Shown: positions 14,836 to 46,580 of the stretch, piece by piece | Position numbering within the stretch: the stretch's first letter is position 1 | Layout: each line of letters starts with the position of its first letter | Source: Planctomycetota bacterium | GTDB taxonomy: Bacteria > Planctomycetota > UBA1135 > UBA2386 | Assembly (NCBI GenBank): GCA_965662465.1 | Contig: CBFIIO010000016.1 | Location: forward strand, 7,587-71,586 | Direction of reading: 5' to 3' | Length of the DNA stretch: 64,000 nucleotides | Notes under the pieces: model-generated | The model's input: the letters and a program-made list of their open reading frames with translations, nothing else | The model's database searches: none | What the model was told of the DNA's origin: nothing | Translations under genes and position numbers: made by a program

Positions 14836-16695
14836 ATGGCTTCCCATCGGCCGAAACTCTTATTGCTCCTGACTCTGCCCCTTCTCGCAGGGATGTCGGC
14901 TTGTTTGGGGAAGAAGTCTGTTGGGGTGTCCCTATCGATTGATCGCACTTCGCCGGCTCTAGATGATCCTTCGAAGCCAGTGCTGCTCAACGAGGCCCTG
15001 ACGATCTACTTCAGCGAGCCGATTCTGCCGACGAGCGTCACTTCCGATTCGGTCTCATTGATTGATGAGTCTGGGCATAAGGTTCCAGGGCAACTTCGAG
15101 CCGGTAAAGCGGGCAATGATTGGGTTCAGTTTGTCCCAGATCCGCCTCTTGCTGCGGATTTAGATGACGGCTCCTTTCGACCGGGAGCTCATTACCGTTT
15201 GGTCTTTACCGGACGGGGGCGTGTCGATCGCGTTAAGTCACAGGATGGCCGTCGTTCGCTAGCCGACCTCCATTCATTTGATATCTACATCGCAGATCGC
15301 AACCAAGCTCCAGTTGGGTTGCCGTCAATCTTGCGTCCGCCAGCCAGTGATTTGCCGCTGATGATGCGAACATCGGACGGCCCAGTACACGTTGCCGCAG
15401 ACGTGCCGCGGTTGTTGCTGCATTTCACATTGCCAATATTGCCGACGAGTTTGCGGTCAGAAGCGTTTCGAATCCGCCTGCAAGACGGCGGTATTTTGGT
15501 GCCTCGAGGTATTCGGGCAGTGCCGTCTCCATTCGACAAATTGGACTTCCCAGGAAGTACCATTGAAATCGATCTTGGCTCGGTGCCGCGGTTAGAAGAT
15601 GGCACGCCGCGTCCTCTTACAGAAATGGATTTCATCAGCGTTGTTCTGGTCAGCGAAGGCGGGCTGGTCGACTACGCCGGTCGTTCGCCGTTACCAGGCA
15701 CTCATTATTGGAGTGTGGTCGAAGGTCGGAGTGTGCCCATTTGCAGTTGGCCCGACGGTGAGCAGTATTACTCCAGCGAAGATCAGCTGCACGCGGGCTT
15801 CGAGGTTCGCGGTGCCAATATTGTGCCTAAGGTGCGCGTCGAGGCTGGCAATGGCAGTCTAGGAGCATTCTGGCCGACGAAGGATATCACGCTCAGAACC
15901 GGTGAGTCTTTTGACCGCGGCGACGGAGTTCGAGTGGTCAGCTCTGGGCCAGATTTCCACTTTGCATCGATCAATATCCCCGCGGATGTCACTGTGACGG
16001 TTGATGCAAGCAGTGGTCCTGTGCGCCTGCTTGCGACCGGCGGCATGCGTCTGGCAGGCTCGCTTAGTCTGAATGGCCCAGCGACTGCGTTACCAGCGCG
16101 AGCTTTCATATCCCGCCCGGTCGCTGATTTGATCAGCAGCGCAAGGGTTGCATTGGTCGCCGCTGGGGACCTGCAGGTCTACGGAGATATCACCAGTTCG
16201 GCTAGCATTTCCGAATCCGAGACCCCTTTGTTGCTGGCTACTGCTGGTTGGCTGCGGCTTCACGGCGAACTGCCGTTCCAGAGTGTGTTGGTTGTCGACC
16301 CAGCCGATCGTGGTGGGTGGCATATTGAGGGGGTTCGTGGCCAATCCAAGCCGTATCCAGCGGCGTTTACCGTAGGGCTTGCCGCCGGTGCTGAAATCGC
16401 GTTCCAGGGCCTGCTCCCATGGCGTCAGTTGCCGTCACACCTCGACAGTGGCGTGCTCCAGATTGGTGATGTGCCGAGTGAGTTGGCTGTCGAGTGGCAG
16501 GCTACGGCGGCTGATGCGATTCGTCGGGAGCTTCCAGACCTAAGAACTGACCGTATCGGTCGCTGGCAGCCGGCCAGAGACCGTGACGTTCTTGTCGTCG
16601 GTGGCGGTGGATTTGTTCGTTTGAAGCTGAGTGCCAGGGTCCGTGAGGGCGAGATACTGCCTAGCATTCGTGAATTGCGACTCGTTGAGAACTAG
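14836..16695 (+). CDS. Lipoprotein (619 aa) with Big_5-like Ig domain; short type II family member without polyglycine tracts
   Basis: Lipobox AGMSA-C. LTIYFSEPILPTSV...VQFVPD...FRPGAHYRL. FHFASINIP module shared with the type II paralogs. Ends PSIRELRLVEN. Confidence 0.78.
   Translation: MASHRPKLLLLLTLPLLAGMSACLGKKSVGVSLSIDRTSPALDDPSKPVLLNEALTIYFSEPILPTSVTSDSVSLIDESGHKVPGQLRAGKAGNDWVQFVPDPPLAADLDDGSFRPGAHYRLVFTGRGRVDRVKSQDGRRSLADLHSFDIYIADRNQAPVGLPSILRPPASDLPLMMRTSDGPVHVAADVPRLLLHFTLPILPTSLRSEAFRIRLQDGGILVPRGIRAVPSPFDKLDFPGSTIEIDLGSVPRLEDGTPRPLTEMDFISVVLVSEGGLVDYAGRSPLPGTHYWSVVEGRSVPICSWPDGEQYYSSEDQLHAGFEVRGANIVPKVRVEAGNGSLGAFWPTKDITLRTGESFDRGDGVRVVSSGPDFHFASINIPADVTVTVDASSGPVRLLATGGMRLAGSLSLNGPATALPARAFISRPVADLISSARVALVAAGDLQVYGDITSSASISESETPLLLATAGWLRLHGELPFQSVLVVDPADRGGWHIEGVRGQSKPYPAAFTVGLAAGAEIAFQGLLPWRQLPSHLDSGVLQIGDVPSELAVEWQATAADAIRRELPDLRTDRIGRWQPARDRDVLVVGGGGFVRLKLSARVREGEILPSIRELRLVEN
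16290..16328 (+). repeat. 39-bp dispersed repeat, copy 1 (encodes VVDPADRGGWHI)
   Basis: ggttgtcgacccagccgatcgtggtgggtggcatattga, 37/39 identical to 46205..46243. Confidence 0.92.
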
Positions 16696-16855
16696 CGATT
16701 GCTGGAATCGGTTCGGCGGGACCGTATACTGTTGGCAGCCAACGGGCGGTCAGACGCATCATAGGTCAGTATGATGTGGCGGCCATAGGGGTCGCGTCCC
16801 ATCGGCAAACGGTCAGTCAGTAGCTCGCGCGCGCGCGGCTTTCGCAAGGTTGTAC

Positions 16856-17830
16856 ATGAACACGGCAGTGTTCCAAATCGGAGCTGCTCTGCTTGGGGCG
16901 TGCATCGGTTCATTTCTGAATGTCGTCATTTGGCGGCTGCCTCAGGATGACCGTGCTCGTCGTAATCTTGGCGGTCGGTCATATTGTCCTGGTTGTGGCA
17001 AGATGATCCGATGGAACCACAATGTGCCGGTGTTCGGTTGGCTGTTCCTGCGCGGCAAAGCTGCATGCTGCGGCACCCGTATTTCCTTTCGTTATCCGTT
17101 CGTCGAGTTGCTGACTGCCGCCTTGTTCTACGCGTTGGCGGCGTGGCCCCCGTTCGGTTCGGCGCTCGTAACAGATGCGGTCACTGGCTTGGTGACGATT
17201 GACGCCGCCGCGATGGGCGCGTTTGTCGCGAGTGTGATCTTTGCCTCGATGCTCGTCGCTCTGACGTTCATCGATTTCGACACGTATCTGTTGCCCGACG
17301 CGTTAACCAAACCAGGCATGGTGATTGGCCTAGTCGCAGGCGTTTGGCCCGGCGTTGCCGGCATGATGTCACTCGACGCGATAGATTCGCCCGAATTGGT
17401 TCCATCGATGATTGCGACTGTGAGCGGTCTTTTGGTCGGTGGCGGTGTGACGTGGGGGGTGCGCATTGCCGGCAGTGCCGTCTTTAAAAAAGAGGCAATG
17501 GGCTTTGGCGACGTCAAGCTGATGGCAATGATCGGTGCGTTCGTCGGTTGGCAGGGTAGCTTGTTGACGTTGTTCCTTGGCTGCGTCTTCGGCGCCATTG
17601 TTGGCAGTGTCTTGACCTTGCGTAGCGGCAATGCTCGCATCCCCTTTGGTCCTTATTTGGCCATGGGGGCGATCGTCACGCTGTTTGGTCAGGGACCAAT
17701 CCTTACTTGGTTATTTGTCGACTGGCCAGCATGGCAGCGCGACAACCCATCGTCAGTGTTCGCAGTGCTCGGAATTGGCCTGTGCGCATTGGTTGCTCTT
17801 CTATGGATCATCCGTCGAGGTCGGCGTTGA
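16856..17830 (+). CDS. pilD: Prepilin peptidase (A24) / N-methyltransferase
   Basis: GSFLNVVIWRLP, RSYCPGC, NVPVFGWLFLRG, ISFRYPFVELLT, catalytic Asp motifs FIDFD and GFGDVKL, and IPFGPYL. Start placed at ATG 16856 after aaggt (track TTG 16850). Confidence 0.95.
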   Translation: MNTAVFQIGAALLGACIGSFLNVVIWRLPQDDRARRNLGGRSYCPGCGKMIRWNHNVPVFGWLFLRGKAACCGTRISFRYPFVELLTAALFYALAAWPPFGSALVTDAVTGLVTIDAAAMGAFVASVIFASMLVALTFIDFDTYLLPDALTKPGMVIGLVAGVWPGVAGMMSLDAIDSPELVPSMIATVSGLLVGGGVTWGVRIAGSAVFKKEAMGFGDVKLMAMIGAFVGWQGSLLTLFLGCVFGAIVGSVLTLRSGNARIPFGPYLAMGAIVTLFGQGPILTWLFVDWPAWQRDNPSSVFAVLGIGLCALVALLWIIRRGRR

Positions 17831-17954
17831 TTCATCTTTTCTATCCACGAGTTGCGCTGTGCATGATTGTGCGCATGTTCGTTGCTCTGTATTTCATTCG
17901 TTCGCTTGTTCTCGACAGTCTGTGTTCGACAGCTGTATCCGTCTGGGAGGCACC

Positions 17955-18587
17955 ATGAAGTTCCGTAAGGCATTGCTCATTCTTTCGCTCGTAGCTACGT
18001 CGCTTGCGACTAGTTGCACCACTCGTTACCAGGACATGTTGAGGGATCGTGATAATCAGATCCGTTCGCTCAGTGGCGATCTGGCGCGCATGCGCGGTGA
18101 GAACGAAGAGCTGCAAAACCGTCTGGTATCGACGCCGAGTCCGGCACCGATGGCAGAATCAGCCGATCTCCTGACCGATCTTCGGCGTGATCTCGGCGAC
18201 GATGCTGATGTTAGCTACCGCCGTGGTCGCATCAGTATCGGCGTCAACAATCGGGTCACCTTTGACTCTGGTAGCACACGCTTGAAGGCTTCGTCTCACA
18301 AGGTGCTGCGCAGTGTTGCCGCGGTGTTGAAGTCGCAGTTTGAAGGCCGTCGGTTCTTCATTGAGGGCCACACCGATACTGATCCAATTAGCAAAACGAA
18401 GGACAAGTATTCGAGCAACCGCGACTTGTCGTCAAAGCGCGCTGATGCAGTAGCTCAATATCTCGTGTCACAAGGCGTATCTGAGTCGGCGATTGTTGTT
18501 GTTGGTTATGGCGAGTTCGATCCTTTGGACTCCAAAAGGAAGGCAGCTAATCGTCGTGTAGAGATCGTCGTCGGCGACATGCTCTAG
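17955..18587 (+). CDS. OmpA/MotB-family peptidoglycan-binding lipoprotein with coiled coil
   Basis: RBS ggagg, then MKFRK...ATS-C lipobox, a coiled coil, and IEGHTD...NRDLSSKRADAV...GYGE...NRRVEI. The track start 17631 is over-extended. Confidence 0.88.
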   Translation: MKFRKALLILSLVATSLATSCTTRYQDMLRDRDNQIRSLSGDLARMRGENEELQNRLVSTPSPAPMAESADLLTDLRRDLGDDADVSYRRGRISIGVNNRVTFDSGSTRLKASSHKVLRSVAAVLKSQFEGRRFFIEGHTDTDPISKTKDKYSSNRDLSSKRADAVAQYLVSQGVSESAIVVVGYGEFDPLDSKRKAANRRVEIVVGDML

Positions 18588-19302
18588 GCCTCAATAGGTC
18601 TTTCATGTGCCGTTGTGTGCGAACTCAATTCGCGTAGATGAAAGGGCCGACCAAACGGGCGTTGTCGATCGGTTGCATCGGCATGTCGGTCATGGCTGTG
18701 AATATCCTTTGGATAGCAAGGGCCGGATAGCCGTAGGTTCATCCAGCGGTCATGGTCATTTGTAGGCATAAGGGCTGTGTAGCTGGCTGCGTAGTGGTCC
18801 AGTTCGATCCAGGCGCACCGGCTGATCTCGGCACCGCAGATGATGCTCCGCACGTTTGAATGACTAGCCGCTGTGGTTGCCGAGGCCCTTCGGCAGCCAA
18901 TTGGTTGGTCGTTGGCCGGCGATTTCGAGGCGATTGTCTCGGATAGTTACTCGTCGCCAAGTGCACGAAACTAGGGTTTGGTAGCCGCCTCGAATGTGTC
19001 GATTTATTCGACAGGATCGCGTTTGGTTACGGGGTCAGGCAGCTTGGAGCCGCAGCTGTTGGGTCACAACTCTTGCTGCTAATGGGCTTTACGGGTGTGG
19101 TGCTCATCCAGGCTAGAGTCTCATTCGACTCGCTGGGGTGGGGCATTTTGGTGCGCAGCGACCATGACAATGGGCACCCCCGCACAAGAACTGGGGTCAT
19201 TTTGTAAGACGGTCGATCATGGTCCTAAATCCATATGGCCTCGTGCGCCGATACCCATAGCGATCAGTCAAGTCGGCTGATTGAGCACAGGAGCGCGACA
19301 GC

Positions 19303-20418
19303 ATGGTCTCTATGGAAGAACTGCTGAACCTGATGGTTCAGCGTGGTGGTTCTGACCTTCATCTTTCCGTTGGTTCCCCGCCACGGATCCGTGTCGACGG
19401 CAAGTTGATCGATACGGAATACGAACCTCTGATGCCGGAGGCGACGAAGAAACTCGTGTACTCAGTGCTCGGCGCCGACCAAGTTGCCAAGTTCGAGAAG
19501 AATCTCGAACTCGACTTCTCATTTGGAGTCGCGAATCTTGGTCGCTTCCGTACTAACGCATTCGTGCAGCGCAGCACAGTAGCCGCTGTCTTGCGCGTGA
19601 TCCCGTTCGAGGTTCATGACTTTGACGCGATCGGATTGCCGGTTTCTGTTTGCGAGCAAATCTGCAGTCTGCCGCGCGGGCTGGTTCTTTGCACAGGCTC
19701 AACCGGTTCTGGCAAATCGACGACCTTGGCCTCCATGGTCAATTACATCAACGAGCAGCGGCAGGGTCACATTGTCACGATTGAAGATCCAATCGAGTTT
19801 TTGCATCGCAATAAGGGCTGCCTCATCAATCAGCGTGAAGTCGGTGGGGATACGCACGGATTTGGAAAGGCACTGAAGTCGGTCTTACGTCAAGACCCCG
19901 ACGTCGTCCTGGTCGGCGAGATGCGTGATCTTGAGACTATCGAGGCGGCGCTGACTTTGGCTGAAACTGGTCACTTGACGTTTGCGACACTGCATACATC
20001 CGACGTTACACAGACAGTTAATCGCATCGTCGATGTGTTCCCTGCGCATCAGCAGCAACAGATCCGCACGATGCTGTCTTTCACATTGCAGGCAATCATT
20101 TGTCAGCAACTAGTGCCGAAGCAGCACGGCAAGGGACGGGCTTTGGCTGCTGAGGTGATGATTGCGAATCCGGCAATCCGCGCTTTGGTTCGCGATAACA
20201 AATCGCATCAGATCATGTCGATTCTTCAGACCAGTGCACAGTTAGGCATGAAGACCATGAACCAGTCGTTGTTCGAGCTTTATCGCGCTGGCACGGTTTC
20301 GTTCGAGGATGCGATTGCGCACACCAGTGACGAAGGCGACTTCCAACGTTTGATGGAGCGGGCAGGAATCAGTAACGCTGGTTCTACCTTGGTCGGAAGT
20401 GGGAGGCGTTCGCTCTAA
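19303..20418 (+). CDS. pilT: Type IV pilus retraction ATPase
   Basis: SDLHLSVGSPP, Walker A GSTGSGKST, TIEDPIE, LRQDPDVVLVGEMRD, GHLTFATLH, and an AIRNLIRE-like motif AIRALVRD. Confidence 0.95.
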   Translation: MVSMEELLNLMVQRGGSDLHLSVGSPPRIRVDGKLIDTEYEPLMPEATKKLVYSVLGADQVAKFEKNLELDFSFGVANLGRFRTNAFVQRSTVAAVLRVIPFEVHDFDAIGLPVSVCEQICSLPRGLVLCTGSTGSGKSTTLASMVNYINEQRQGHIVTIEDPIEFLHRNKGCLINQREVGGDTHGFGKALKSVLRQDPDVVLVGEMRDLETIEAALTLAETGHLTFATLHTSDVTQTVNRIVDVFPAHQQQQIRTMLSFTLQAIICQQLVPKQHGKGRALAAEVMIANPAIRALVRDNKSHQIMSILQTSAQLGMKTMNQSLFELYRAGTVSFEDAIAHTSDEGDFQRLMERAGISNAGSTLVGSGRRSL

Positions 20419-20421
20419 GCC

Positions 20422-22137
20422 ATGACTCAGTTCGCTAAAAAACTTCGAGGCATTCTCGAGAAGGCAGGCAAGCTTGAAACCGGTGCTGGCGACACATTGC
20501 TAGCTGAGGCGCGAGCTCAAAAGCGTCCGTTCACCGAGATCCTAGTTAAGAAGGGGGTCGCGACCGAACAAGACCTCGTTGCGTTGATTGCTAAGGCCGC
20601 CAATATCCCGCCGATCGACTTGTCAAAATTGACCCTGAACAAAGAGGTTCTTGAGTCAGTTCCAGAAGACGTCGCGCGGGACTACGGCGTGTTTCCGGTC
20701 GATAAGATCGGTTCGATCATTACGATTGCGGTCGCTAACCCATTCGATGTTCTCAAGTTCGATGACATTCGGATCGTTACTGGTTGCACGCTACGGCTCG
20801 TCGTTAGCACGGAAGAAGAGATTGAGCGCACGCGCGGTAAGAGCTACCAGCAAGAAAGTGAGAGCGTTGATGGCATCCTCGACTCATTTGACGATGCTGA
20901 CGTCTCTCTAAAAGAGGACGCTGATGAAGATGACGGCACGGACCTCTCTGCCATCAGTGATGAAGATTCGCCAGTCGTCAAGTTGGTGAACAAGATGATC
21001 CTGGATGCCTGCAACCAAGGCGTTTCAGACATCCACATCGAACCCTTTGAGAAGAAAGTGATCGTTCGATATCGCAAGGATGGCACCATGGCGGAGGCGA
21101 TGACCTTGCCGAAGCGGATGCAAAACAACATCACTTCGCGCATCAAGATCATGTCAAAGCTGGATATCGCCGAGAAGCGAAAGCCCCAAGATGGCAAGTT
21201 CCAGATGAAGATTGGCCGTAAGGCCGTCGATTTCCGGGTGTCGATTTTGCCAGTTGTCTGGGGTGAAAAGACCGTCTTCCGGATTCTTGACTCAAGCAAC
21301 CTTGCAACTGACATCAAGGAACTCGGTTTCGAAAAGCAGTCAATGGCAGACTATCTGTGGGCCTGTTCGCAGCCCTACGGAATGATTCTTGTCACTGGTC
21401 CAACGGGCTCAGGAAAGTCTACGACTCTCTACTCCGCGGTCCGACATATTGCATCGCCTGACATCAATCTGGTAACGGTTGAAGATCCAGTTGAATACCA
21501 GTTAGAAGGCATCAACCAGGTTCCTGTTAATCCAAAGGCTGGACTGACTTTTAGTGGCGCGTTGCGATCGATTCTTCGTCAAGACCCTGACGTTGTGTTG
21601 CTCGGTGAGGTTCGTGATGCCGAAACGCTTGAGATTGCAGTGAAGGCTGCGCTGACGGGTCACCTAGTTCTTAGCACGCTGCATACAAACGATGCCCCTT
21701 CGACGATCACTCGTATGGTCGACATGGGCTGTGATCCGTTCATGGTCTCTAGTTCGACATTGCTGATCTGTGCTCAGCGACTTGGACGGCGGTTATGTCC
21801 GAGTTGTAAGAAGCCGGTGGATATTCCGAAGGCTGCCCTGCTCAAACTCGGCTACCGCGAGGAAGACTTTGAAGATCCAGACATCCCGATGACTCTGTTT
21901 GAGCCTGCTGGGTGTCCGCGTTGCAACAAGGGATACAAGGGGCGGTTTGCGCTGCTCGAGACGATGCGCATGACTGAGGCCGTGAAGCGCATGGTTGTTG
22001 ACGGCGCACACTTAGCTGACATCAAGAAGCAGGCTCTCGCCGATGGCATGTTGACTCTTCGTCGCTGCGGCTTGTTGAACGCTGCTCGTGGTGTCACCAG
22101 TTTGCAGGAAATTGAGGCGCAGACGATGGCCGACTGA
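20422..22137 (+). CDS. pilB: Type IV pilus / T2SS assembly ATPase PilB/GspE
   Basis: SDIHIEP, LDIAEKRKPQDG, Walker A GPTGSGKST, TVEDPVE, LRQDPD, GHLVLSTLH, and tetracysteine CPSC...CPRC. Confidence 0.93.
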   Translation: MTQFAKKLRGILEKAGKLETGAGDTLLAEARAQKRPFTEILVKKGVATEQDLVALIAKAANIPPIDLSKLTLNKEVLESVPEDVARDYGVFPVDKIGSIITIAVANPFDVLKFDDIRIVTGCTLRLVVSTEEEIERTRGKSYQQESESVDGILDSFDDADVSLKEDADEDDGTDLSAISDEDSPVVKLVNKMILDACNQGVSDIHIEPFEKKVIVRYRKDGTMAEAMTLPKRMQNNITSRIKIMSKLDIAEKRKPQDGKFQMKIGRKAVDFRVSILPVVWGEKTVFRILDSSNLATDIKELGFEKQSMADYLWACSQPYGMILVTGPTGSGKSTTLYSAVRHIASPDINLVTVEDPVEYQLEGINQVPVNPKAGLTFSGALRSILRQDPDVVLLGEVRDAETLEIAVKAALTGHLVLSTLHTNDAPSTITRMVDMGCDPFMVSSSTLLICAQRLGRRLCPSCKKPVDIPKAALLKLGYREEDFEDPDIPMTLFEPAGCPRCNKGYKGRFALLETMRMTEAVKRMVVDGAHLADIKKQALADGMLTLRRCGLLNAARGVTSLQEIEAQTMAD

Positions 22138-22198
22138 TCAGGCGAATTGCAGTCAGCTAGATCAGCAAGTCAGTGAGAGATAACTAGGGGAATAGGAA

Positions 22199-23443
22199 AT
22201 GGCTACCAAGTTCAAATTTGAGGCACGCGATGCGACCGGCAAGGTTGTTAAGGGAGCCATTACGGCATCATCTCAATCTGAGGTGGTGGCCGAAGTACGT
22301 CGGCGTCAATTGACTCCGCTTGAGATCAACAAGTCACTGGGTCTCGGTAGCCTGTTTTCGAAGTCGGTCGGGCCGAAATCAAAGAAAGGTCTCGCCAAGA
22401 GAGCGTCTGCCAAGAAGGGCGAGCTTGAGATCTTTACGCGTCAGCTCGCGACGATGCTTAGCGCTGGTATTCCGATGCTGGAAGCTCTTGAGATAATGGC
22501 GGATCAGGCCGAAAGCCCTGGGTTCGCCTTTTGTCTAGACAAAGTCGTTGAGTCGATCCGCAATGGTTCGGACTTGTCCAAGGCGATGGAGCCGCACAAG
22601 AAGGTCTTCAGCCACATCTATGTCAGCATGATTCGGGCTGGTGAGGTCTCTGGCCAGATCGACATCATTCTTCAGCGTTTGGCTGATTACCTAGAGGCCG
22701 CTGCGCACCTTCGCAACGAAATCAAATCGGCGATGACCTATCCGGTGATTTCGCTGATATTGGTGATTGGCATCGCATCATTTTTGATGATTGGCATCGT
22801 GCCGTCATTCAAACCGGTGTTCGAGTCACTCGAAGTTGAGTTGCCGGCATTGACCGTTGTGATCATGGACATCGCGTTCTTCATGCGCGACTACTGGTAT
22901 GTGATCTTTGGTGGCATGGCAGCTTTGATCTTTGGCACCATGGCTGCGGTTAAGACTGAGAAGGGTTGCTATGTGAAGGATGTGATCATCCTACGCATCC
23001 CGGTCTTTGGAGTCCTGTTCAAGAAGGTTGCCCTTTCACGCTTCGCTCGCACATTTTCGACACTGATAAAAAGTGGTGTTCCGATTTTGGGTGCGATGGA
23101 AATTGTGTCTGATACCTCAGGCAACAAAGTCATCTCTGGAGTCGTAGATCGAGCTCGAGACAGTGTTCGTCAAGGGGACAGCTTATCTGACCCCTTTATG
23201 TCGTCTTCAGTGTTCCCTCCAATGGTCGTTAAGATGATGGCCATTGGTGAGCGTTCCGGCGCACTTGACGCCTTGCTCGAGAAGATCGCTGAGTTCTATG
23301 ACCAGCAAGTTGAAGCCGAGGTTAAGGGGCTTACCGCGATGATCGAGCCAATCATGATTGCCATTATGGGCATCATCGTTGGGGGCATCGTGTTGGCCGT
23401 GTTCTTACCCATCTTCAAGCTGCAAGAAACGCTGTCGGGTTGA
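22199..23443 (+). CDS. pilC: Type IV pilus inner-membrane platform protein PilC (GspF family)
   Basis: FTRQLATMLSAGIP, GEVSGQID, KSAMTYP, RFARTFSTLIKSGVP, GERSGALD, and MIEPIMI...FLPIF. Confidence 0.95.
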   Translation: MATKFKFEARDATGKVVKGAITASSQSEVVAEVRRRQLTPLEINKSLGLGSLFSKSVGPKSKKGLAKRASAKKGELEIFTRQLATMLSAGIPMLEALEIMADQAESPGFAFCLDKVVESIRNGSDLSKAMEPHKKVFSHIYVSMIRAGEVSGQIDIILQRLADYLEAAAHLRNEIKSAMTYPVISLILVIGIASFLMIGIVPSFKPVFESLEVELPALTVVIMDIAFFMRDYWYVIFGGMAALIFGTMAAVKTEKGCYVKDVIILRIPVFGVLFKKVALSRFARTFSTLIKSGVPILGAMEIVSDTSGNKVISGVVDRARDSVRQGDSLSDPFMSSSVFPPMVVKMMAIGERSGALDALLEKIAEFYDQQVEAEVKGLTAMIEPIMIAIMGIIVGGIVLAVFLPIFKLQETLSG

Positions 23444-23534
23444 TCGCGTCATTATGCGATTGGCATCGCCACTAGAGCTTTTGCGTGTAGCTCGACAGAA
23501 CTGAACGCGCTGGAGTCAGGCAAAAAGGGAATCC

Positions 23535-24413
23535 ATGAATCAATCAATCAGCCGTGTGCTGCTCTATGGCAGTGCAGCGCTTGCTATTTCTGGGATCGCG
23601 ATTACGTGGGCTACAACGTCGACGGATGCCGACGTAGTGACACTGCTGAGCAGCGCTGACTCACAGTTGCGTTTGGCGCATGCGATGCCTGTTTTCGACT
23701 CGGAAGGGAATCGATTGGATTCACGCGATGTCATGATTGTCAGTGCGATTGAGCAGCTGGTAAAGGTTGAGCGCAATGAGCCTGGATTGGCTGTTACTGC
23801 CGAGTTCCGCGGATTTGCACACATGCTGCAGGATGAATTCGCTGCGGCTGCCGCGTGTTATCAAGAAGCTAGCACGCGCGGTGATTGCAGTGACGAGCAA
23901 CGGGATGTCCTGACCTTTAATCAAGCGCGCATGCTGGTTCAGGCTGATCAGCCAGATCAGGCGCTGGCATTGTTTGCTGCAAATAAAGTGGCTCTTGATG
24001 CGCGCTACGGCCATCAGCGTCGACTAGAGGAGGCCACAATCCTAAGTGGCTTGAACAGGTCGGCGGAGGCTGTTGTTCGCCTTGACATTATTAGGTCCGA
24101 CGAGAGCGCATCGCCCATGGCACTGCTGCAAGCAGGCCGTGTGTATACGAGTCTTCACTGTTTAGAAGCCGCGGAAGATGTGCTCATGCGGACCCGAAAA
24201 GAACTTGTCATAGCTGATTACTACCTTGCTCAACTCAAGTTGTGCCAGGGGCAAACCGATATCAGCATGGAGTTGTTGGAGCGTGTCTCGAAGGCGCGGC
24301 CGATCGAGGTGAGGCGGATGCTTCTTGATGAAGCGAACGCCTGGTCGGCTGTCTTGACAGATGCGCGCTTCCAAGAGCTCTCGAAGGTGGTTCCAGCGTC
24401 CCCTGGGCGCTGA
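23535..24413 (+). CDS. TPR-like helical repeat protein with N-terminal signal/anchor
   Basis: Hydrophobic N-terminus and repeated A..CYQEA / QARMLVQ...ALALF / YYLAQLKL...S.ELL helical pairs. Lies between pilC and the pilin. Confidence 0.65.
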   Translation: MNQSISRVLLYGSAALAISGIAITWATTSTDADVVTLLSSADSQLRLAHAMPVFDSEGNRLDSRDVMIVSAIEQLVKVERNEPGLAVTAEFRGFAHMLQDEFAAAAACYQEASTRGDCSDEQRDVLTFNQARMLVQADQPDQALALFAANKVALDARYGHQRRLEEATILSGLNRSAEAVVRLDIIRSDESASPMALLQAGRVYTSLHCLEAAEDVLMRTRKELVIADYYLAQLKLCQGQTDISMELLERVSKARPIEVRRMLLDEANAWSAVLTDARFQELSKVVPASPGR

Positions 24414-24499
24414 TCTCAGCTTTGAAGTAGTCGAGTGATAGGGGAAACGAACGCAGCTAATTCGGCTGCATCAATCAAAGGTTGTTCATGGAGAATCAA

Positions 24500-25225
24500 A
24501 TGTCTAAGCGGGAACAGGGCTTTACGCTCATCGAACTCATGATCGTTGTTGCGATCATTGCCATCATTGCATCAATTGCTATTCCGAACCTTCTCAGTGC
24601 GCGTCTCAACGCCAACGAGTCGGCCGCAATCGCGACGTTGAAGAACATCGCATCAGGCCAATCGCAGCTGCAGGCTTCGGGCACCATCGACGTCAACGGC
24701 AACGGCCAAGGCGAATACGGCTTCTTCGGCGAATTGTCTGGCCGCATCGCTGTTCGTGGCAGCACGCTTGTGGTTACCCCACCAGTGCTTTCGGCTGCTT
24801 TCGGTAACGTTGGAACTGCTGGCACGCCACAAGAGTCTCGCGTTTCGCGTTCGGGCTACGTCTTCCAGATGTTCCTCCCAAGTGTTACTGCAGCAGGCCT
24901 TGCTGAAGATGCAGGTGGTGGTGACTTGACCAACGACAACGGTGTCGATCCGGGTCAAAGCGAAGTGCTTTGGTGCTGCTACGCATGGCCATCCACGGTT
25001 GGCAGCAGTGGCAACCGCACGTTCTTCATCAATCAGTCTGGCGACGTTCTCTCGACGAACGCTGCAGCTGGTGGCATGGCCAGTCGCTACAGCAACTCCG
25101 GTAGTGTGCTTCCGACTTTCGATGCTGCCTACACTGGTGCAACGATGGATACTGCCGTTGGCATCAACGCAGCAACCACCGGTGTCCCGGCCAATGATGG
25201 CAACACCTGGGTCGTAGTCCAGTAA
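24500..25225 (+). CDS. Type IV pilin-like protein (large, 241 aa) with class III signal peptide
   Basis: MSKREQG|FTLIELMIVVAIIAIIASIAIPNL with E at +5. RBS ggag before ATG 24500. Followed by a strong hairpin. Confidence 0.92.
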   Translation: MSKREQGFTLIELMIVVAIIAIIASIAIPNLLSARLNANESAAIATLKNIASGQSQLQASGTIDVNGNGQGEYGFFGELSGRIAVRGSTLVVTPPVLSAAFGNVGTAGTPQESRVSRSGYVFQMFLPSVTAAGLAEDAGGGDLTNDNGVDPGQSEVLWCCYAWPSTVGSSGNRTFFINQSGDVLSTNAAAGGMASRYSNSGSVLPTFDAAYTGATMDTAVGINAATTGVPANDGNTWVVVQ

Positions 25226-25267
25226 GGGCTACTAAGTATGTAGCTGTCTTTCGGCTGCTACATCGAG

Positions 25268-25315
25268 CAATGCCTGCGTGCGGCTTCGGCCTCGCGCGGG
25301 CATTGTTGGTTTTGG
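25268..25315 (+). terminator. Intrinsic terminator after the pilin gene
   Basis: 17-bp stem caatgcctgcgtgcggc / gcctcgcgcgggcattg (one mismatch, two G-U pairs) with a c(UUCG)g loop, followed by a T-rich tail. Lies between convergent pilin and tatD genes. Confidence 0.8.
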
Positions 25316-25403
25316 TTGGTTAGATTGCTATCCCGGTGACCAGAGGCATCATGTAAGCCTCTGCTGGCCAAGCGCCGCCCTGGCAGTATTGCGCCAATAT
25401 GCG

Positions 25404-32857: not shown

Positions 32858-32911
32858 CAATCTGTGACTAGGCGCGCGCCGCAGTATGAGCGCGCTGCTG
32901 CACCTGGCTGC

Positions 32912-37056: not shown

Positions 37057-37170
37057 TTGTTGCTCTTGGTTTGAGTGATTGCTGGTCAACGTCAGCTTCA
37101 CCTGCTCCGTTTGATCCGCACTTAGTATTTGCTTCGCATTCAGTAATCGACTGATCCTTTTCGTCTCATT

Positions 37171-39855: not shown

Positions 39856-41078
39856 TCTCGAGATCATCGAGCGCCGCCGCCGATTTGCGGCGTGCGCCGA
39901 TAACGACGCTGGCAGCTCAGCACGTTGCGCTTGACGCAGATAACGTGCTCTCACCGGGGTGCGTCGAATGGGACGCTAATGGACGCATCGTCGCCCTGCG
40001 GCGAGTCCGCAAGTCGGAGCTTGTACGGGATCTGGCGGTGTTGCCCGGCTTAGTCAACGCGCATGCGCATTTGCAACTTGAGCCATTGGCGCGGATGGAG
40101 CGCCGTTTCTTGCCGTGGGTGTCTGCGGTAGTCGCAGCTCGCAGCAAGCGTCAATCGAAGGATCATCGTCGCATTGCGCTTAGTTCACTTCGTGAATTGC
40201 TGCGGTCGGGGACGACTGCTGTAGGTGAGATCGATTCGACTGGCGCTACTGGTATGGCCCTGCGTCGTCTACCGATGGCTGGCCGTTGCTATCGCGAAGT
40301 GACGGGCTTTCACCTTTTGCGACGTGATGCCCGTGCTTTGGTTCGTGGCGTATTCCCGAAAGAGACTGGTTGTATGCGGTCTGGCTTGTCTCCTCATGCT
40401 CCGTATTCTGTCTCTGCTGATCTGATGCGTGCAGCCGCGCAGCGAACTCGTAACCTAACCATTCATTGTGCTGAGTTGCCTGAGGAACAGCAGTTCTTGA
40501 GGACGGGAAGTGGGCCGTTTGCAGAGCTTTTGGAGAGATTGGGTCGGTTGCCCGATGGCTTTCGTGCACCTGGTTGTGGTGCTGTGCGTTGGCTTGAGAA
40601 ACTTGAGGTGCTGCAGGCAAATACCCTGCTGGTGCATTGCCAGGAGCTTGAGCGGGGTGATGTCGGTCGGATTTCTTCGTCGGGCGCCTCGGTTGTTGTT
40701 TGCCCGGGGACTATTCGCTACTTCCAGCGCACGCCCCCTCAGATTTTTAAGTGGCTGCAGGCCGGTATCCCGGTCGCCTTGGGAACGGACTCCCACGCAA
40801 GTAATAAGGGGCTGTCGATGCGGCGAGAGCTGGCTCTGGCGGCTGAGATGTGGCCTGAGTTGCACCCGCGGCAACTGCTCTCGATGGCGACTTCAGTTGG
40901 TGGTCGAGCGCTGGGTGGCCCTTTTGGTGGTCTGAGACGTCGTCGGCGTGCCGATTTCCTCACCGTGCGGGCCAGCGGCTCGTGGGAGGATACTCTAGCC
41001 GCATTTGTTCATGATCAGGTGCCTATTGAATGGGTTGTTCTGGCTGGGCAGGTGCACCGTATCTGCGCCGAGCGTTGA
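39852..41078 (+). CDS. Amidohydrolase-superfamily metalloenzyme (deaminase-like)
   Basis: PGLVNAHAHL, SPHAPYSVS, IHCAE, LVHC and LGTDS. Confidence 0.85.
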   Translation: MISRSSSAAADLRRAPITTLAAQHVALDADNVLSPGCVEWDANGRIVALRRVRKSELVRDLAVLPGLVNAHAHLQLEPLARMERRFLPWVSAVVAARSKRQSKDHRRIALSSLRELLRSGTTAVGEIDSTGATGMALRRLPMAGRCYREVTGFHLLRRDARALVRGVFPKETGCMRSGLSPHAPYSVSADLMRAAAQRTRNLTIHCAELPEEQQFLRTGSGPFAELLERLGRLPDGFRAPGCGAVRWLEKLEVLQANTLLVHCQELERGDVGRISSSGASVVVCPGTIRYFQRTPPQIFKWLQAGIPVALGTDSHASNKGLSMRRELALAAEMWPELHPRQLLSMATSVGGRALGGPFGGLRRRRRADFLTVRASGSWEDTLAAFVHDQVPIEWVVLAGQVHRICAER

Positions 41079-41112
41079 GCTAGACGTCGCCCATGTCTAA
41101 AGTTCTAGCCAA

Positions 41113-42096
41113 GTGACGACGCTTCTTGACCTCTTTCGCTCTCAGCAGAGCTTCTTACTTACAGGTCATGAGAACCCCGACGGTGACTGTGTCGGTGCTC
41201 AGGTAGCTCTCTCGCAATTGCTGCTCTCGATGGGGAAGACGGTTCATATCGTCAATCCTGATCCACTCTCTAAGAGCTATGAGTTCTTGGCTGAGCACAC
41301 TTCATTTGGCACTGCTAAGAATGAGGCTGATCTGCCAGAGTTTGATGTCGCAGTGTTGCTTGATTGCTCGCAGCTCTCTCGGGTTGGTTCGCTAGGCAAG
41401 AGCATTGCTGCACGCAATAAAACAATCGCTGTAATTGACCATCACGTTGGCTGTGAGAACGGCGACGGGAGTGTCTCCTATGTTGATCCGACTGCGGCGG
41501 CTACCGGCGCATTAGTGCGGCGCCTATACGCTGACTTTGGGGCCGAGCTAACGATGCCCGCTGCGCAGGGTATCTTCTTATCGCTTGTTTCTGATACCGG
41601 ATGGTTTCGATACTCAAACTCCGACGCAGAGGTTTTTGCGATGGCCTCCGAGTTGGTTGCTCTCGGTGTCGATAGCTCTCAAGTGTATGACGCAATCAAC
41701 CGGCGTAATCATCCAAGCTCACCGCAACTCTTGTCAGACGCGCTTGAGGAAAGTCAGTTACTCCTCGATGGGCGGATGGCGCGCATTAGTCTAGGCAGGT
41801 CTCTTCTCGAGCGTTGCTCTAGATTGAACTTTGATACTGATCTCATCATGGAGCCTTTGCGTTCGGTTGAGGGGGTTGAGGTCGTGGCATTGCTCAAGGA
41901 GCGTTTCGATGGCATCGTTAAATGTTCGTTGCGCGCTCGTGGCGATGTTGATGTGCAGGCCATCGTGAAGCCCTTTGGCGGCGGAGGTCACAAGAAGGCT
42001 GCTGGGGCAAGTCTTTCGATGAGCCTCACTGAAGCCGAGTCCGCAATTGAAACCGCGGTGAAGCAAGCCTTCGCTGCTCAGGCCGGAAACCAATAA
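41113..42096 (+). CDS. nrnA: DHH/DHHA1 phosphoesterase (NrnA-like oligoribonuclease / pAp phosphatase)
   Basis: GHENPDGD, LDC, IDHH, DTGWF, SLR and GGGGHKKAAG. Confidence 0.88.
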   Translation: MTTLLDLFRSQQSFLLTGHENPDGDCVGAQVALSQLLLSMGKTVHIVNPDPLSKSYEFLAEHTSFGTAKNEADLPEFDVAVLLDCSQLSRVGSLGKSIAARNKTIAVIDHHVGCENGDGSVSYVDPTAAATGALVRRLYADFGAELTMPAAQGIFLSLVSDTGWFRYSNSDAEVFAMASELVALGVDSSQVYDAINRRNHPSSPQLLSDALEESQLLLDGRMARISLGRSLLERCSRLNFDTDLIMEPLRSVEGVEVVALLKERFDGIVKCSLRARGDVDVQAIVKPFGGGGHKKAAGASLSMSLTEAESAIETAVKQAFAAQAGNQ

Positions 42097-42106
42097 GCAG
42101 GGTAAC

Positions 42107-42856
42107 TTGTCGACGTTTGCGATTATCTCTGATGTGCATAGCAACCTCGAGGCGCTTGAGGCTGTCTTGCTTCGTATCGAAGAGCTTGGTGTAGAGGACG
42201 TCGTTTGCTTGGGGGATGTCGTCGGTTATGGCGCTGATCCATTGCCCGTTACCTTGATGGTGATGAAGCGCTGTAAATGGACGATTCTAGGCAATCATGA
42301 TTGGGGCATGTTCCACACCATGGACGACTTCAATCCCTTGGCGCGCGAAGCTTTGATGTATACGCGCCAACAGCTGCGCCCGTTTTTCTTGCGGCCCAGA
42401 CGCCGTCAGGCGCATGAGTTCTTGCGCGATTTGCCGGATCGTATGTCTGACTACGGCTTCAACTTTTATCACGGTTCGCCTCGAGATCCGGTGATGGAGT
42501 ACGTTCTGAAAAGCGATGGCTTTCTGGAGCCTGAGAAGATGGAGCAGTTGTTTGCGCTCGTCGAAGTGCCGTGCTTTGTCGGCCACACTCATTGGCCTGG
42601 TGTGCACAGGCCGGACTTTCGCTTTACGCAGGCTACTGACGAAGAGAGCGAGTTCTTGATTGATGGGCCGTGCATCGTCAATGTGGGGAGCGTCGGGCAG
42701 CCGCGCGATGGAGATCCTCGGGCTAGTTTCGCTGTAGTGCGCGGCAATCGGGTTCAGATTGAGCGTGTTGCTTACGATTTCCGGCGTACTCAAGCAAAGA
42801 TTTTGGCAGCCGGATTACATCCGGCACTTGCCGAACGTTTGGCGCGGGGCAAGTAG
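42107..42856 (+). CDS. Calcineurin-like metallophosphoesterase (YfcE-type)
   Basis: SDVHSN, LGDVVGYG, GNHD, HGSP, GHTH and NVGSVGQPRDG. Confidence 0.9.
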   Translation: MSTFAIISDVHSNLEALEAVLLRIEELGVEDVVCLGDVVGYGADPLPVTLMVMKRCKWTILGNHDWGMFHTMDDFNPLAREALMYTRQQLRPFFLRPRRRQAHEFLRDLPDRMSDYGFNFYHGSPRDPVMEYVLKSDGFLEPEKMEQLFALVEVPCFVGHTHWPGVHRPDFRFTQATDEESEFLIDGPCIVNVGSVGQPRDGDPRASFAVVRGNRVQIERVAYDFRRTQAKILAAGLHPALAERLARGK

Positions 42857-42858
42857 TG

Positions 42859-43191
42859 ATGCCCGACGACAAGAGCCAAGAGATTGTTGTCGTCTTATGC
42901 ACTGTCCCATCTGACTGCTCTGAGTCGATCGCACAAACTGTCGTGGAAGAGCGGCTGTGCGCATGTGTCAATATTCTGCCGGCAGTACGTTCTGTCTTTC
43001 GCTGGCAGGGCAAGGTTGATGTTGCCGATGAGCACTTGATGATCGCCAAGACTACATTGGCTGCTTCGGGTTCGTTGCAGGGCCGCCTTGTGGAGTTGCA
43101 TCCATACGATGTTCCCGAGGTCATCATTTTACCTGTTGCTGCTGGTTTACCGCCCTACCTGTCTTGGGTTGTCGACTCAGTGCGTTCATAG
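42859..43191 (+). CDS. cutA: Divalent-cation tolerance protein CutA
   Basis: LCACVNI, SVFRWQGK, E..MIAKT and HPYDVPEV. Confidence 0.93.
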   Translation: MPDDKSQEIVVVLCTVPSDCSESIAQTVVEERLCACVNILPAVRSVFRWQGKVDVADEHLMIAKTTLAASGSLQGRLVELHPYDVPEVIILPVAAGLPPYLSWVVDSVRS

Positions 43192-43200
43192 GAGCCTCTG

Positions 43201-44820
43201 ATGTCTTCTTCGATAGAGCCTGAGAGCAAAGCTGTCGAGGTTGCTGTCGACCAGGTGCACGGTTGGCGCATCTTGATTGCAATTGGCGTTGGTCTAGTTT
43301 GTTTTTGGGTCGGTCACTACTTGCCGTTTCCGGTGGCAGCAGATCTTGCCCCTGACCAAGAACAGATTGGGCCAGCTGCATGTCGACTTTTGTTCTGCGT
43401 TGGTCTGACAACCTCGTCATGGTTGATGGGTGCTATGCCAATCGCGGCTGCGTCCTTGTTGCCTTTGGCGTTGCTGCCAATGTTGGGGGTGCGCTCCACA
43501 GCTGATTTGACGACTGGCTACGGTCACCCCATTTTGTGGTTGTTTGGTGGCGGCTTTGTGTTGGCGCAAGCAGTAGAGCGTTGTGGCTTGCATCGTCGAA
43601 TGGCGCTCAAAATCGTTGCGGCACTTGGGCCTTATCCTCGGAGGCTAGTTCTTGGATTCTGTCTGTCGGCGACCTTTGCCTCAATGTGGATTAGCAACAC
43701 GGCAGTTGCATTGCTGCTGTTGCCCATTGGATCAGTGTTGGTGCGGCGCACTGCGGAATTAGGTGAACTATCCCCAAAGTCGCAGTCTAATTTTGGCGCC
43801 GCAATTATGTGTGGCATTGCGTTTGGCGCGACCATTGGTGGCATGGGGTCACCGATTGGCACCGCCCCAAATGCATTGTTCTTTACCAACTATGAGCCGC
43901 TCGTAGATCAAGGTGCGAGGCCGATCTCGTTTTTATTGTGGCTGCTCGCCTTTGCGCCTTTTGCGTTGCTGCTCTCCTTTTGCGCAAGTCAGGTTTTGTC
44001 GCGCATTGCATTGAGGTTGCCGCGAGAACGCTTTGCTCGTGGCGACGAACTGCTTCATGAAGCACGCTCGCTGCCTCGCTGGAGAAAGGCCGAGGTGCGC
44101 ACTGCATTGTTGTTTGCCTCGGCAGTCGTGTTGTGGATGACACGAGGTGACCTGCAGCTAGGTGACGACTCGGTGATTCATGGTTGGGCGCACTACTTGG
44201 TCCCGGCAGGCGAACGGGACCGCTTCTTAGCAGATGGCTCAGTTGCCGTGCTCGTCGCGATCTTAGCTTTTTTGATTCCATCGGGAACGGACGAGCGCCC
44301 TAAGCAGCGTTTGTGCGATTGGGAGACAGCACGGCAGATGCCGTTTGATTTACTGTTGCTGCTCGGCGCTGGCATCGCGATGGCGCAGGCTTTTGGGCCT
44401 ACTGGATTGTCTGCAGCCTTCGGCGAATTGCTGCGGCCAATGATTGGCTCGATGCATCCAGTATTGCTGATCCTGTCGATCATTCTTGCAGTGTCTTTGC
44501 TATCTGAAATCGCTAGCAATACAGCGGTAGCGACATTGGCCTTACCAATTGTTCGTGAGGGCGCGATTGCTGCGGATATGAACCCGCTAGTGCTAATGCT
44601 GCCGGTTGTGATTGGTGCTTCTTGCAGCTTCATGTTGCCGATCTCGACGCCACCGAACACGATTGTGTTTGCCTCTAGGCAGATCCGATTCGGTCAGATG
44701 GCGCGTGCTGGCGTTGGACTTAATCTGTTGTCGGCCTTGGTGCTGTTACCGGTGTTATGGTTCTGGGTGTTGCCGCTCTGCGGCGTCGACACGAGTGCTC
44801 TGATAAAAGGCAGCAAGTGA
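43201..44820 (+). CDS. SLC13/DASS sodium-coupled anion transporter
   Basis: LFGGGFVLA, SMWISNTA, IGGMGSPIGTAPN, SEIASNTA and SFMLPISTPPN, with many TM helices. Confidence 0.92.
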   Translation: MSSSIEPESKAVEVAVDQVHGWRILIAIGVGLVCFWVGHYLPFPVAADLAPDQEQIGPAACRLLFCVGLTTSSWLMGAMPIAAASLLPLALLPMLGVRSTADLTTGYGHPILWLFGGGFVLAQAVERCGLHRRMALKIVAALGPYPRRLVLGFCLSATFASMWISNTAVALLLLPIGSVLVRRTAELGELSPKSQSNFGAAIMCGIAFGATIGGMGSPIGTAPNALFFTNYEPLVDQGARPISFLLWLLAFAPFALLLSFCASQVLSRIALRLPRERFARGDELLHEARSLPRWRKAEVRTALLFASAVVLWMTRGDLQLGDDSVIHGWAHYLVPAGERDRFLADGSVAVLVAILAFLIPSGTDERPKQRLCDWETARQMPFDLLLLLGAGIAMAQAFGPTGLSAAFGELLRPMIGSMHPVLLILSIILAVSLLSEIASNTAVATLALPIVREGAIAADMNPLVLMLPVVIGASCSFMLPISTPPNTIVFASRQIRFGQMARAGVGLNLLSALVLLPVLWFWVLPLCGVDTSALIKGSK

Positions 44821-46580
44821 CAAGTAAAATCAGCAAGCAGATGTCTGTGCCAGGTATCGAGGAGAAGGGTCACAAGGGCGCTTTGCTCGCTTGGATTGGG
44901 ACATTCTTACTGTTCGTTTGTGTTGCGCATGGCAACTTTGAAACCACCGATGCTGGGTTCTCGATGCATTCTGCGCGATCGCTTTGGAACCGTGGCGATA
45001 GCGCACTATTAACTGCGGCCCAGGGTGGCGATCACATTGGGGAAATTGCCGCTGCTGAATACATACGTCATTGGGAAAGCGTTGGCCCGCGTAAGAGCGG
45101 CTTGACCTTCAACGACCGCACCTACGTGTGGTATCCAATGGGTCACGGTTTCTTGATGGCTCTGTTCATGCCTATGGCGGAGGTGTTTGGAAAGCTGCTG
45201 CCTGATGCAGATGCTCGGCTGCAGGACAAAGTTCAGCCTTTTCAGCAGTCTTACTTAGAAGGCAGTCCAGTCGTTACTCAGGCGACGATTTCGATATTGA
45301 TGCCGGCGATGTGTTTCGCAACTTCGCTGCTATTGCTTTACCGAATTGCGCGCGAACTCGGGGCAGCTCAACGAGATGCTGTGTGGTCGACTCTGGCTAT
45401 TGGAATGGCTACGCAAGCATTTGCGCTGGGACGCGAGCAGCTCTCCGATGGACCCGGCTTGATGTTTTTGCTTGCAGCAATGCTGCCGATCATTCGCATC
45501 CATATAGGAACGCAATCTAGGCGAAGCGCAGCTTGGGCTGGCTTAATGGTTGGTCTCGCAATGTTGCTTCGCTACCAGAACATGTTCTCAGTTCTGACGT
45601 TTGGACTGTTGTTGGTGATCATTTGTGTTCGCCGCAAGAACTTCCGCGATCTCTACATGTTTGCCCTCGGTGGAGCGCCGGTATTGGTTGTGTTCTTGCT
45701 GACCAACTATTTGAGGTTTGGCAATCCGATGGTCACTGGTTACCCAACCGAGGCAAATTGGTTTTCGGCCCCTTGGACGGCTGGCCTGTGCAAGATGCTG
45801 TTTGGAGCAGGGCGTGGTGTGATGTGGTTCTCGCCATTGCTTTGGTTGGCTCTGCCTTATGCAATACAGTGGCAACGTAGAGTTGAGTTGCGCTGGCTGG
45901 CTTGGGTGATGTTTGCGACACCGCTACTCATTTTTATGTCGGCACAAGGTTGGCAGGGCGGCCAAGCCTGGGCAATCCGCTATGTGACTCCTGGTGTCGT
46001 GGCGCTGCTGGCTATCGTTTTGCCGCAGACAAAGCCGTGGCATACATGGCCACAGTTGTGGCGTGCGCTCGTCGTTGTGGGTTGGTTTGTAAGCCTCACG
46101 AGTGTGGTGGCTCCAGTTCGTGGCCAGCTACAGCTTGCATCGCAGGCAATAACAGCGGAACGCACTCAAGCATTTGAGGACGGGCGTATCACCGCTGCTG
46201 AGGCGGTTGTCGATCCAGCCGATCGTGGTGGATGGCATATTGACTACACCCCGTTGATTGCTAATTGGCGCTACGCGTTGAGCTCTCGCCCTAACTTCTT
46301 TGAAGACGAGAATCAGAAGCCGCGAAATGGCAGCGAAAACGGCATCGTTGCGATCTATGGAGTGAAGGCATTCGACGAAGGAAAGCAGGGGTCGGTTCCT
46401 AGTCACTGGGCAGATCGGGGTGGACGACATCTTTGGTGGCGCTTTTGGGGAGACCTATACGGTGTCAATTGCTGGTTTCTGGTGCTGCCTGTCGCAATTT
46501 TAGGCGCTCTATTGGCCCTACTTGGTTGGCGTCAACTCGGCAAACCGTCGGATTCTTCGGCGCTGCCGGACAATTCGTAG
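44817..46580 (+). CDS. Polytopic membrane protein, GT-C / PMT-like glycosyltransferase candidate
   Basis: About 12 hydrophobic segments. Acidic residues in the first loop (FETTDA). GTGA overlap with the DASS stop (alternative ATG 44841). Confidence 0.55.
   Translation: MTSKISKQMSVPGIEEKGHKGALLAWIGTFLLFVCVAHGNFETTDAGFSMHSARSLWNRGDSALLTAAQGGDHIGEIAAAEYIRHWESVGPRKSGLTFNDRTYVWYPMGHGFLMALFMPMAEVFGKLLPDADARLQDKVQPFQQSYLEGSPVVTQATISILMPAMCFATSLLLLYRIARELGAAQRDAVWSTLAIGMATQAFALGREQLSDGPGLMFLLAAMLPIIRIHIGTQSRRSAAWAGLMVGLAMLLRYQNMFSVLTFGLLLVIICVRRKNFRDLYMFALGGAPVLVVFLLTNYLRFGNPMVTGYPTEANWFSAPWTAGLCKMLFGAGRGVMWFSPLLWLALPYAIQWQRRVELRWLAWVMFATPLLIFMSAQGWQGGQAWAIRYVTPGVVALLAIVLPQTKPWHTWPQLWRALVVVGWFVSLTSVVAPVRGQLQLASQAITAERTQAFEDGRITAAEAVVDPADRGGWHIDYTPLIANWRYALSSRPNFFEDENQKPRNGSENGIVAIYGVKAFDEGKQGSVPSHWADRGGRHLWWRFWGDLYGVNCWFLVLPVAILGALLALLGWRQLGKPSDSSALPDNS
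46205..46243 (+). repeat. 39-bp dispersed repeat, copy 2 (encodes VVDPADRGGWHI)
   Basis: ggttgtcgatccagccgatcgtggtggatggcatattga, 37/39 identical to 16290..16328. Confidence 0.92.

Follow-up and report, generated by a model that had tools for sequence, protein, structure and literature searches.

How do two otherwise unrelated genes come to share 39 nucleotides almost letter for letter, in the same reading frame and 29.9 kb apart? The question is raised by a 64,000-nt stretch of DNA from a Planctomycetota bacterium (GenBank assembly GCA_965662465.1, contig CBFIIO010000016.1, positions 7,587 to 71,586), which was analysed as a whole, is referred to below as the window and provides the coordinates given here. 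The upstream gene, gene 1 (14836-16695, + strand), is an open reading frame (ORF) with a lipobox-like N-terminus that encodes a 619-aa lipoprotein with immunoglobulin (Ig)-like domains and a beta-rich C-terminal part; the other, gene 2 (44817-46580, + strand), encodes a polytopic membrane protein of predicted glycosyltransferase C (GT-C) fold, similar to PMT and ArnT. The shared stretches lie in direct orientation at 16290-16328 in gene 1 and at 46205-46243 in gene 2, both on the + strand. We conclude that they very probably go back to a single recent, ectopic and non-reciprocal short-patch replacement, in which gene 2 served as donor and gene 1 as recipient, by a process resembling short-patch double illegitimate recombination, or SPDIR, and probably without effect on fitness.

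Two near-identical tracts and their authenticity

The two stretches agree at 37 of 39 positions, share their codon phase and encode the peptide VVDPADRGGWHI followed by E or D, and both mismatches, GAC/GAT (16299/46214) and GGG/GGA (16317/46232), are synonymous third-position transitions. These particulars, first noticed in an original prediction made from the letters alone, were all reproduced on recomputation, as was the lack of any relationship between the flanks, whose ungapped identity over 60 nt is 0.25, the level of random sequence. The same prediction had judged a chance match very unlikely, and indeed none of 100 dinucleotide-preserving shuffles of the window yields two matches, while self-BLAST of the assembly returns the pair with an E-value of 7.7e-8. 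A search tolerating up to 8 mismatches finds exactly two copies of the 39-mer in the 4.55-Mb, 91-contig assembly. The pair is real, and is neither a coincidence nor a member of a dispersed, genome-wide repeat family.

As the genome is a metagenome-assembled genome (MAG) in 91 contigs, a chimeric join or a bleed of consensus sequence from one locus into the other during assembly or polishing had to be considered, and had been named by the original prediction as a way in which the pair might arise spuriously. We give this explanation practically no credence. The longest exact run common to both copies is 17 nt, which is too short for a join in a de Bruijn (k-mer) graph, and both genes are colinear with their orthologues across the patch. 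In three DNA sequencing runs from two studies (2014, 2015 and 2025), as well as in one metatranscriptome, each copy is found within its own flanks with 0 differences, and 13 contigs from independent Tara, ENA and Logan assemblies give one consistent picture of both sites. A 218-nt marine metatranscriptome contig (X9) matches window positions 16220-16437, the cassette region of gene 1, exactly; gene 1 is probably transcribed in situ, carry-over of DNA being a possible alternative.

Self-BLAST combined with a sorting of all short repeats of the genome gave no other clear instance in which unrelated long ORFs share an isolated in-frame patch, the remaining short repeats being tRNA pieces, paralogue motifs, tandem repeats, repeat elements and contig ends. 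With no second clear case among them, a systematic process acting across the genome was set aside.

Direction, timing and junctions of the copying

Homologues of the two genes establish to which of them the shared peptide belongs. All gene 2 orthologues of the genus and family carry VDPAD[YVL]GGWHP[HNR][YF][TS]PL at this site, and the motif is conserved across 125 gene 2 homologues (D469 in 123 of 124, W473 in 116 of 124, with P479, N483 and W484 near-invariant). The corresponding site of gene 1 orthologues is a loop that varies in both length and sequence (for example LVAEA-RGGESSSR-IEG): among 95 homologues it has an entropy of 2.2-3.6 bits and contains indels, between an invariant L485 and a near-invariant G499, and DPAD or GGWH is found only in the window's own cluster at >=90%. 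The motif VDPADxGGWH is therefore native to gene 2, where it is kept, and foreign to gene 1, where the loop is hypervariable, which answers the check on orthologues that the original prediction had proposed. The structural models place the two peptides in correspondingly different surroundings: in the gene 2 protein, a short and ordered helix (H467-473) within the extramembrane part that separates its last two transmembrane helices and, in the gene 1 protein, a loop of residues 488-496 between strands 484-487 and 497-499 that has the lowest local confidence (~76).

The course of events can be read from three nested lineages: A, that of the window; B, at ~94-96% nucleotide identity; and C, at ~87%. 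Lineage C retains the ancestral gene 1 loop, CTG GTT GCC GAC TCT CGC GGA GTT GGT TCT GTT TCA CGT ATT GAA (LVADSRGVGSVSRIE; L041 and L044), and its gene 2 already has the motif, GTT GTC GAT CCA GCC GAC CGG GGT GGG TGG CAT ATC GAC (L042 and L043), with one locus of each kind (L042 for gene 2, L044 for gene 1) coming from a single sequencing run, SRR19040530. Lineage B carries in gene 1 a patch identical to the window's (L047), and the 39-nt stretch of gene 1 is the same in five independent contigs from lineages A and B. Gene 2 of lineage B has GAT CGT GGT GGG TGG CAT ATC (L045 and L046). Gene 2 of lineage A shows two later changes specific to that lineage, GGG>GGA (A at 46232) and ATC>ATT (T at 46240).

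The minimal copied tract is the 23-nt CCAGCCGATCGTGGTGGGTGGCA at 16300-16322 (+ strand), which replaced the ancestral 26-nt TCTCGCGGAGTTGGTTCTGTTTCACG with a net loss of 3 nt and preservation of the reading frame. It matches gene 2 of lineage B at 23 of 23 positions and that of lineage C at 21 of 23, which identifies the donor as being of the A/B type, and the synonymous states of the patch (GAT CGT GGT GGG) likewise fit gene 2 of lineages A and B, unlike that of C (GAC CGG). On the evidence of these alleles, the patch entered gene 1 after the split from lineage C and before that between A and B, and was copied from gene 2 to gene 1 without reciprocal exchange: the motif is present in gene 2 of all three lineages and of all orthologues, and the ancestral gene 1 loop sequence is found nowhere in gene 2. 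The patch is no shorter than 23 nt and no longer than about 32-39 nt, the full 39-nt stretch being its maximal extent with both microhomologies included, and it moved 8-10 residues. The mismatch GAC/GAT is the recipient's own base, kept at the edge of the patch, and GGG/GGA is the later mutation of the donor. Between lineages A and C, 16 differences of gene 1 (including the 3-nt gap) fall into one 30-column segment of the alignment, compared with 3.75 on average and 9 at most in the rest of the gene (P ~8e-8 per segment, 1.5e-4 after Bonferroni correction).

Both junctions lie in short similarities that predate the event, the left one reading GGTTG.CGA and the right one TAT.GA. The left one, an extended microhomology GGTTG(T)CGA at 16290-16298 (+ strand), is native to gene 1 (lineage C GGTTGCCGA) and is also present in the donor (GGTTGTCGA); the right one, TATTGA at 16323-16328 (+ strand), is equally native to gene 1, with TATTGA in lineage C and TATCGA in the donor. 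When gene 1 of lineage C is compared with the gene 2 donor, the left sites agree at 8 of 10 positions (GGTTGCCGAC and GGTTGTCGAT) and the right ones (TATTGA and TATCGA) at 5/6 to 5/7, and the longest exact identity between the sites before the event was 5 nt.

Mechanism, rival explanations and the question of selection

RecA-dependent homologous recombination requires a minimal efficient processing segment of about 20-30 bp. Homologous gene conversion between two diverged repeats by this route would yield the kind of product observed, a non-reciprocal copy between direct-oriented sites on one replicon, but the genes are unrelated, their flanks share an identity of 0.25, and the sites before the event had no more than 5 consecutive identical bases beyond the partial matches at the two junctions. 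Because the identity available falls so far short of the length needed, we regard RecA-dependent conversion as very unlikely. The recent ectopic conversion or micro-cassette transfer put forward by the original prediction thus stands as far as the copying is concerned, to which a direction, a time and boundaries are now attached, and falls as far as conversion was meant to be homologous: the mechanism is illegitimate and bounded by microhomology.

We propose that, recently in the ancestry of the window's lineage, DNA of gene 2 displaced 26 nt of the hypervariable-loop segment of gene 1. In the manner of SPDIR, a single-stranded donor fragment would have annealed at the extended microhomology to single-stranded DNA (ssDNA) exposed at a replication fork, and would then have become part of the nascent strand; two successive replicative template switches would be an alternative route to an equal product. 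The survival of the event is readily accounted for, as the net change of -3 nt keeps the frame and the loop accepts almost any sequence. Its fixation was probably neutral, and so, probably, is the patch itself.

The donor strand need not have come from the same chromosome. A fragment of gene 2 taken up by transformation from a close relative could have acted through the same short-patch mechanism, given that SPDIR can use taken-up DNA (bioRxiv 10.1101/2023.11.22.568220) and that marine populations of the lineage co-occur. We nonetheless consider such an extragenomic source unlikely, as the patch matches the lineage's own gene 2 state at 23 of 23 positions, so that an intragenomic source is sufficient and more parsimonious. 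As to a third-party donor, a search with the exact degenerate pattern found no match among representative genomes, in viral contigs or in JGI metagenome contigs, sets that may lack the window's close relatives.

Two direct repeats 29.9 kb apart might also be the attL and attR sites of a mobile element or, with one mismatch being A in gene 2 and G in gene 1, the template and variable repeats of a diversity-generating retroelement (DGR); to either we assign a negligible probability. The 30-kb interval consists of conserved syntenic housekeeping genes and genes related to pili and type II secretion, and is present in relatives that do not have the repeat. Across the repeat, each gene runs at full length to either side and is colinear with its orthologues, and this colinearity, together with the conserved synteny, rules out attachment sites of an inserted element. 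As for a DGR, the other mismatch is T/C, so the pattern is not adenine-specific, the A arose later in the donor, and no reverse transcriptase domain was found among the neighbours of either gene, the neighbourhoods being what was covered.

A different class of explanation accepts copying as the origin and lets selection keep the two stretches alike, as a small RNA (sRNA) or protein-binding site on both mRNAs or as a short linear motif joining the lipoprotein to the GT-C enzyme, both of which the original prediction had suggested. Selection of this sort would account for fixation and for the later donor change ATC>ATT, and several observations could be accommodated by it: the genes are syntenic ~30-39 kb apart throughout the family, lineages A and B have an identical cassette, the changes on the donor side go toward gene 1-like codons, and the gene 1 region is found in a metatranscriptome. 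We hold a shared functional element to be distinctly unlikely nevertheless. No Rfam family is found in the window; 81-nt folds around both copies, computed for both strands, have z-scores of -0.9 to +0.7 and so stay at the level of shuffles; and no antisense partner above chance exists genome-wide, the sole 15-mer antisense match lying inside a 551-aa ORF. A binding site coordinating the two mRNAs thus found no support in these searches. The linear motif fares no better, since the same peptide is modelled as a floppy loop in gene 1 and as an ordered helix in gene 2, the gene 1 loop varies freely among its 95 homologues, and the motif has been acquired in no other lineage. Nor is the constancy of the cassette telling, as 0 differences over 39 nt are expected ~20% of the time at 4% divergence. 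It is also conceivable that the transplant itself was adaptive, the lipoprotein loop displaying the GT-C helix motif so as to dock with, or act as a decoy for, the binder of that motif, with repeated small exchanges maintaining the likeness, as ATC>ATT and the four gene 1-like codons of the donor would hint; we rate this reading as decidedly improbable.

Several observations sit less comfortably with one neutral, SPDIR-like event. The scar does not discriminate between routes, as it would look alike after SPDIR, after replicative template switching and after break repair with a templated insertion. Gene 2 of lineages A, B and C departs from the genus consensus of the motif (N-VDPAD-Y-GGWH-P-H) at four codons, and all four changes (N>V, Y>R, P>I and H/N>D) are toward the codons of the gene 1 site (GTT, CGN, ATY and GA-); the later ATC>ATT of the lineage A donor again goes toward gene 1. 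In the second motif of gene 2 (46416-46424), CGT AGT GGC of lineage B corresponds to CGG GGT GGA in the window, so that three bases differ over a span of 7 nt and GGT GGA now resembles the first site. At the left junction the sequence is patchy, with a donor-like T at 16295, the recipient's C at 16299 and donor sequence thereafter, which may reflect the way in which a heteroduplex with mismatches was resolved, or else an independent C>T transition at 16295. Finally, 13 codons are too few for an estimate of dN/dS, and neutrality is something that we infer. The gene 1-ward changes of the donor hint that exchange took place more than once or that similarity was selected for; one neutral event does not account for them.

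Taken together, the lineage A changes at 46416-46424, 46232 and 46240 make the gene 2 sites more alike and bring the donor closer to gene 1; they could represent further micro-exchanges, but neither they nor the four gene 1-like donor codons are statistically significant when taken singly. Those four codons are due either to an older exchange in the reverse direction or to a chance microhomology that later enabled the transfer. A resemblance of the sites' flanks is to be expected, because microhomology decides where events of this kind can occur, and it is better read as pre-existing microhomology, an older exchange or weak selection for similarity being possible. A bidirectional mosaic, in which the 39-mer would be composed of alternating gene 1-like and gene 2-like pieces, was mostly dropped, lineage C gene 2 having had V, R, I and D before the patch. 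We retain the single short-patch replacement as the preferred explanation.

The wider setting of the two genes can be described as follows. Gene 1 has a weak Big_5 match in Pfam, its orthologues are full length in 39 of 41 related genomes, and its AlphaFold2 (AF2) model (pLDDT 91.6) finds only generic tandem Ig-like matches in the PDB. It closes a series of very large Ig-like lipoprotein genes (1130-1330 aa; region 10566-25300 and relatives L044 and L048) and is directly followed by a conserved cluster encoding a prepilin peptidase, OmpA, two T2SSE ATPases, T2SSF and a pseudopilin. The interval up to gene 2 further comprises a PLP-CBS (PALP-CBS) enzyme, two more Big_5 lipoproteins, an amidohydrolase, a DHH protein and a symporter. 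Full-length orthologues of both genes occur throughout the genus and family, spaced ~30-39 kb apart wherever both are on one contig, and the source names of the homologues point to marine Planctomycetota MAGs. Beyond gene 2, a slightly decayed tandem array, in which a 16-nt unit (CCGGCTGTATGACTGG) is repeated ~7 times, occupies positions 55549-55660, and the alignment to lineage C breaks near there.

The probable start of gene 2 is at 44817, giving the 587-aa form that is called in all public assemblies, within a longest ORF that begins at 44757. With this start, gene 2 has a 4-nt overlap with the stop of the Na/sulfate-type symporter gene that precedes it (43201-44820), an arrangement suggestive of translational coupling. 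The protein matches Pfam PMT (PF02366) weakly but above threshold (24.7 bits, cutoff 22.7) and the NCBIfam LA_3751/LA_3752 putative glycosyltransferase family, and its homologues are annotated as glycosyltransferase family 39 (GT39; PF13231). With its AF2 model (pLDDT 93.6, pTM 0.93), Foldseek retrieves ArnT (5F15) as the best match, along with AftD, Pmt4, ALG9 and catalytic subunits of oligosaccharyltransferases, so that the protein combines a predicted polytopic GT-C fold with sequence similarity to PMT/ArnT-type families. The peptide ADRGGRHL (46410-46433, + strand), which the original prediction took for a diverged second copy of the shared peptide, proves to be part of a separate family motif, W[EA]DRxGRHLWWRFWGDL, just before the last transmembrane helix, of which D, R, R and H are invariant in 124-125 gene 2 homologues. 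One genus member (G014) has two gene 2 paralogues (C177:6480-8288 and C44:29453-31177), with 68% and 54% identity to the window protein.

A natural short-patch replacement among known systems

Overall, the locus is a confirmed and well-resolved natural instance of a known and rare class of mutation, and neither a regulatory system nor a mobile element. What is otherwise known of short-patch illegitimate replacements comes mainly from experiments with selection in a single laboratory bacterium; here one natural event can be viewed with all its pieces together, namely donor and recipient, the ancestral allele that a sister lineage has kept unaltered, and the microhomologies at either junction, in an uncultivated marine planctomycete in which the product is fixed across many ocean samples. 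The case indicates that such events can carry a ready-made peptide motif in frame between unrelated proteins, and provides a useful positive control for pipelines that seek templated mutation clusters in MAGs. Were the adaptive reading true, illegitimate recombination would have made a natural protein interaction motif in one step.

Three known systems resemble the present case in part. DGRs likewise replace, from a template, a short piece of a variable and surface-exposed loop in their target protein, whereas here one historical event left a stable product, the donor is the coding motif of another gene, the changes are not adenine-specific, and no reverse transcriptase is adjacent. RecA-dependent ectopic conversion between paralogues shares the non-reciprocal copying between two loci of one genome, and differs in relying on what is missing here, namely paralogy, homologous flanks and more than 5 consecutive identical bases before the event. 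Short template-switch mutations trace a cluster of substitutions and small indels to a single templated change (Loytynoja and Goldman 2017, PMC5453318; Walker et al. 2021, PMC7954356), but these models are local and mostly inverted, acting over tens to hundreds of bases, whereas the template here lies 30 kb away in direct orientation.

The closest counterpart is SPDIR in Acinetobacter baylyi, in which ectopic intra- or extragenomic ssDNA anneals at microhomologies, or at extended microhomologies with mismatches (Liljegren et al. 2023, bioRxiv 10.1101/2023.11.22.568220), the strands being annealed at the replication fork and incorporated like Okazaki fragments to give microindels of 3 to ~100 bp, at a wild-type frequency below 1e-12 per cell (bioRxiv 10.1101/2023.11.22.568220). 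As in SPDIR, the change is clustered in one short tract (26 to 23 nt) of otherwise colinear sequence, well within 3 to ~100 bp; the tract is identical to an ectopic, non-homologous donor (23/23, with flanks at 0.25); mismatch-tolerant, extended microhomology predating the event is present at both junctions; and the copying is non-reciprocal, leaving the donor unaltered and substituting a stretch of slightly different length. SPDIR is moreover independent of locus, with a donor that is usually intragenomic. It is also known to be RecA-independent and suppressed by RecJ, ExoX, DprA and RecFOR. Where SPDIR has been described from selected laboratory revertants, the event reported here is a natural one, fixed in uncultivated marine Planctomycetota, and it differs from SPDIR as so far described in having transplanted a conserved protein motif, in frame, into another protein.

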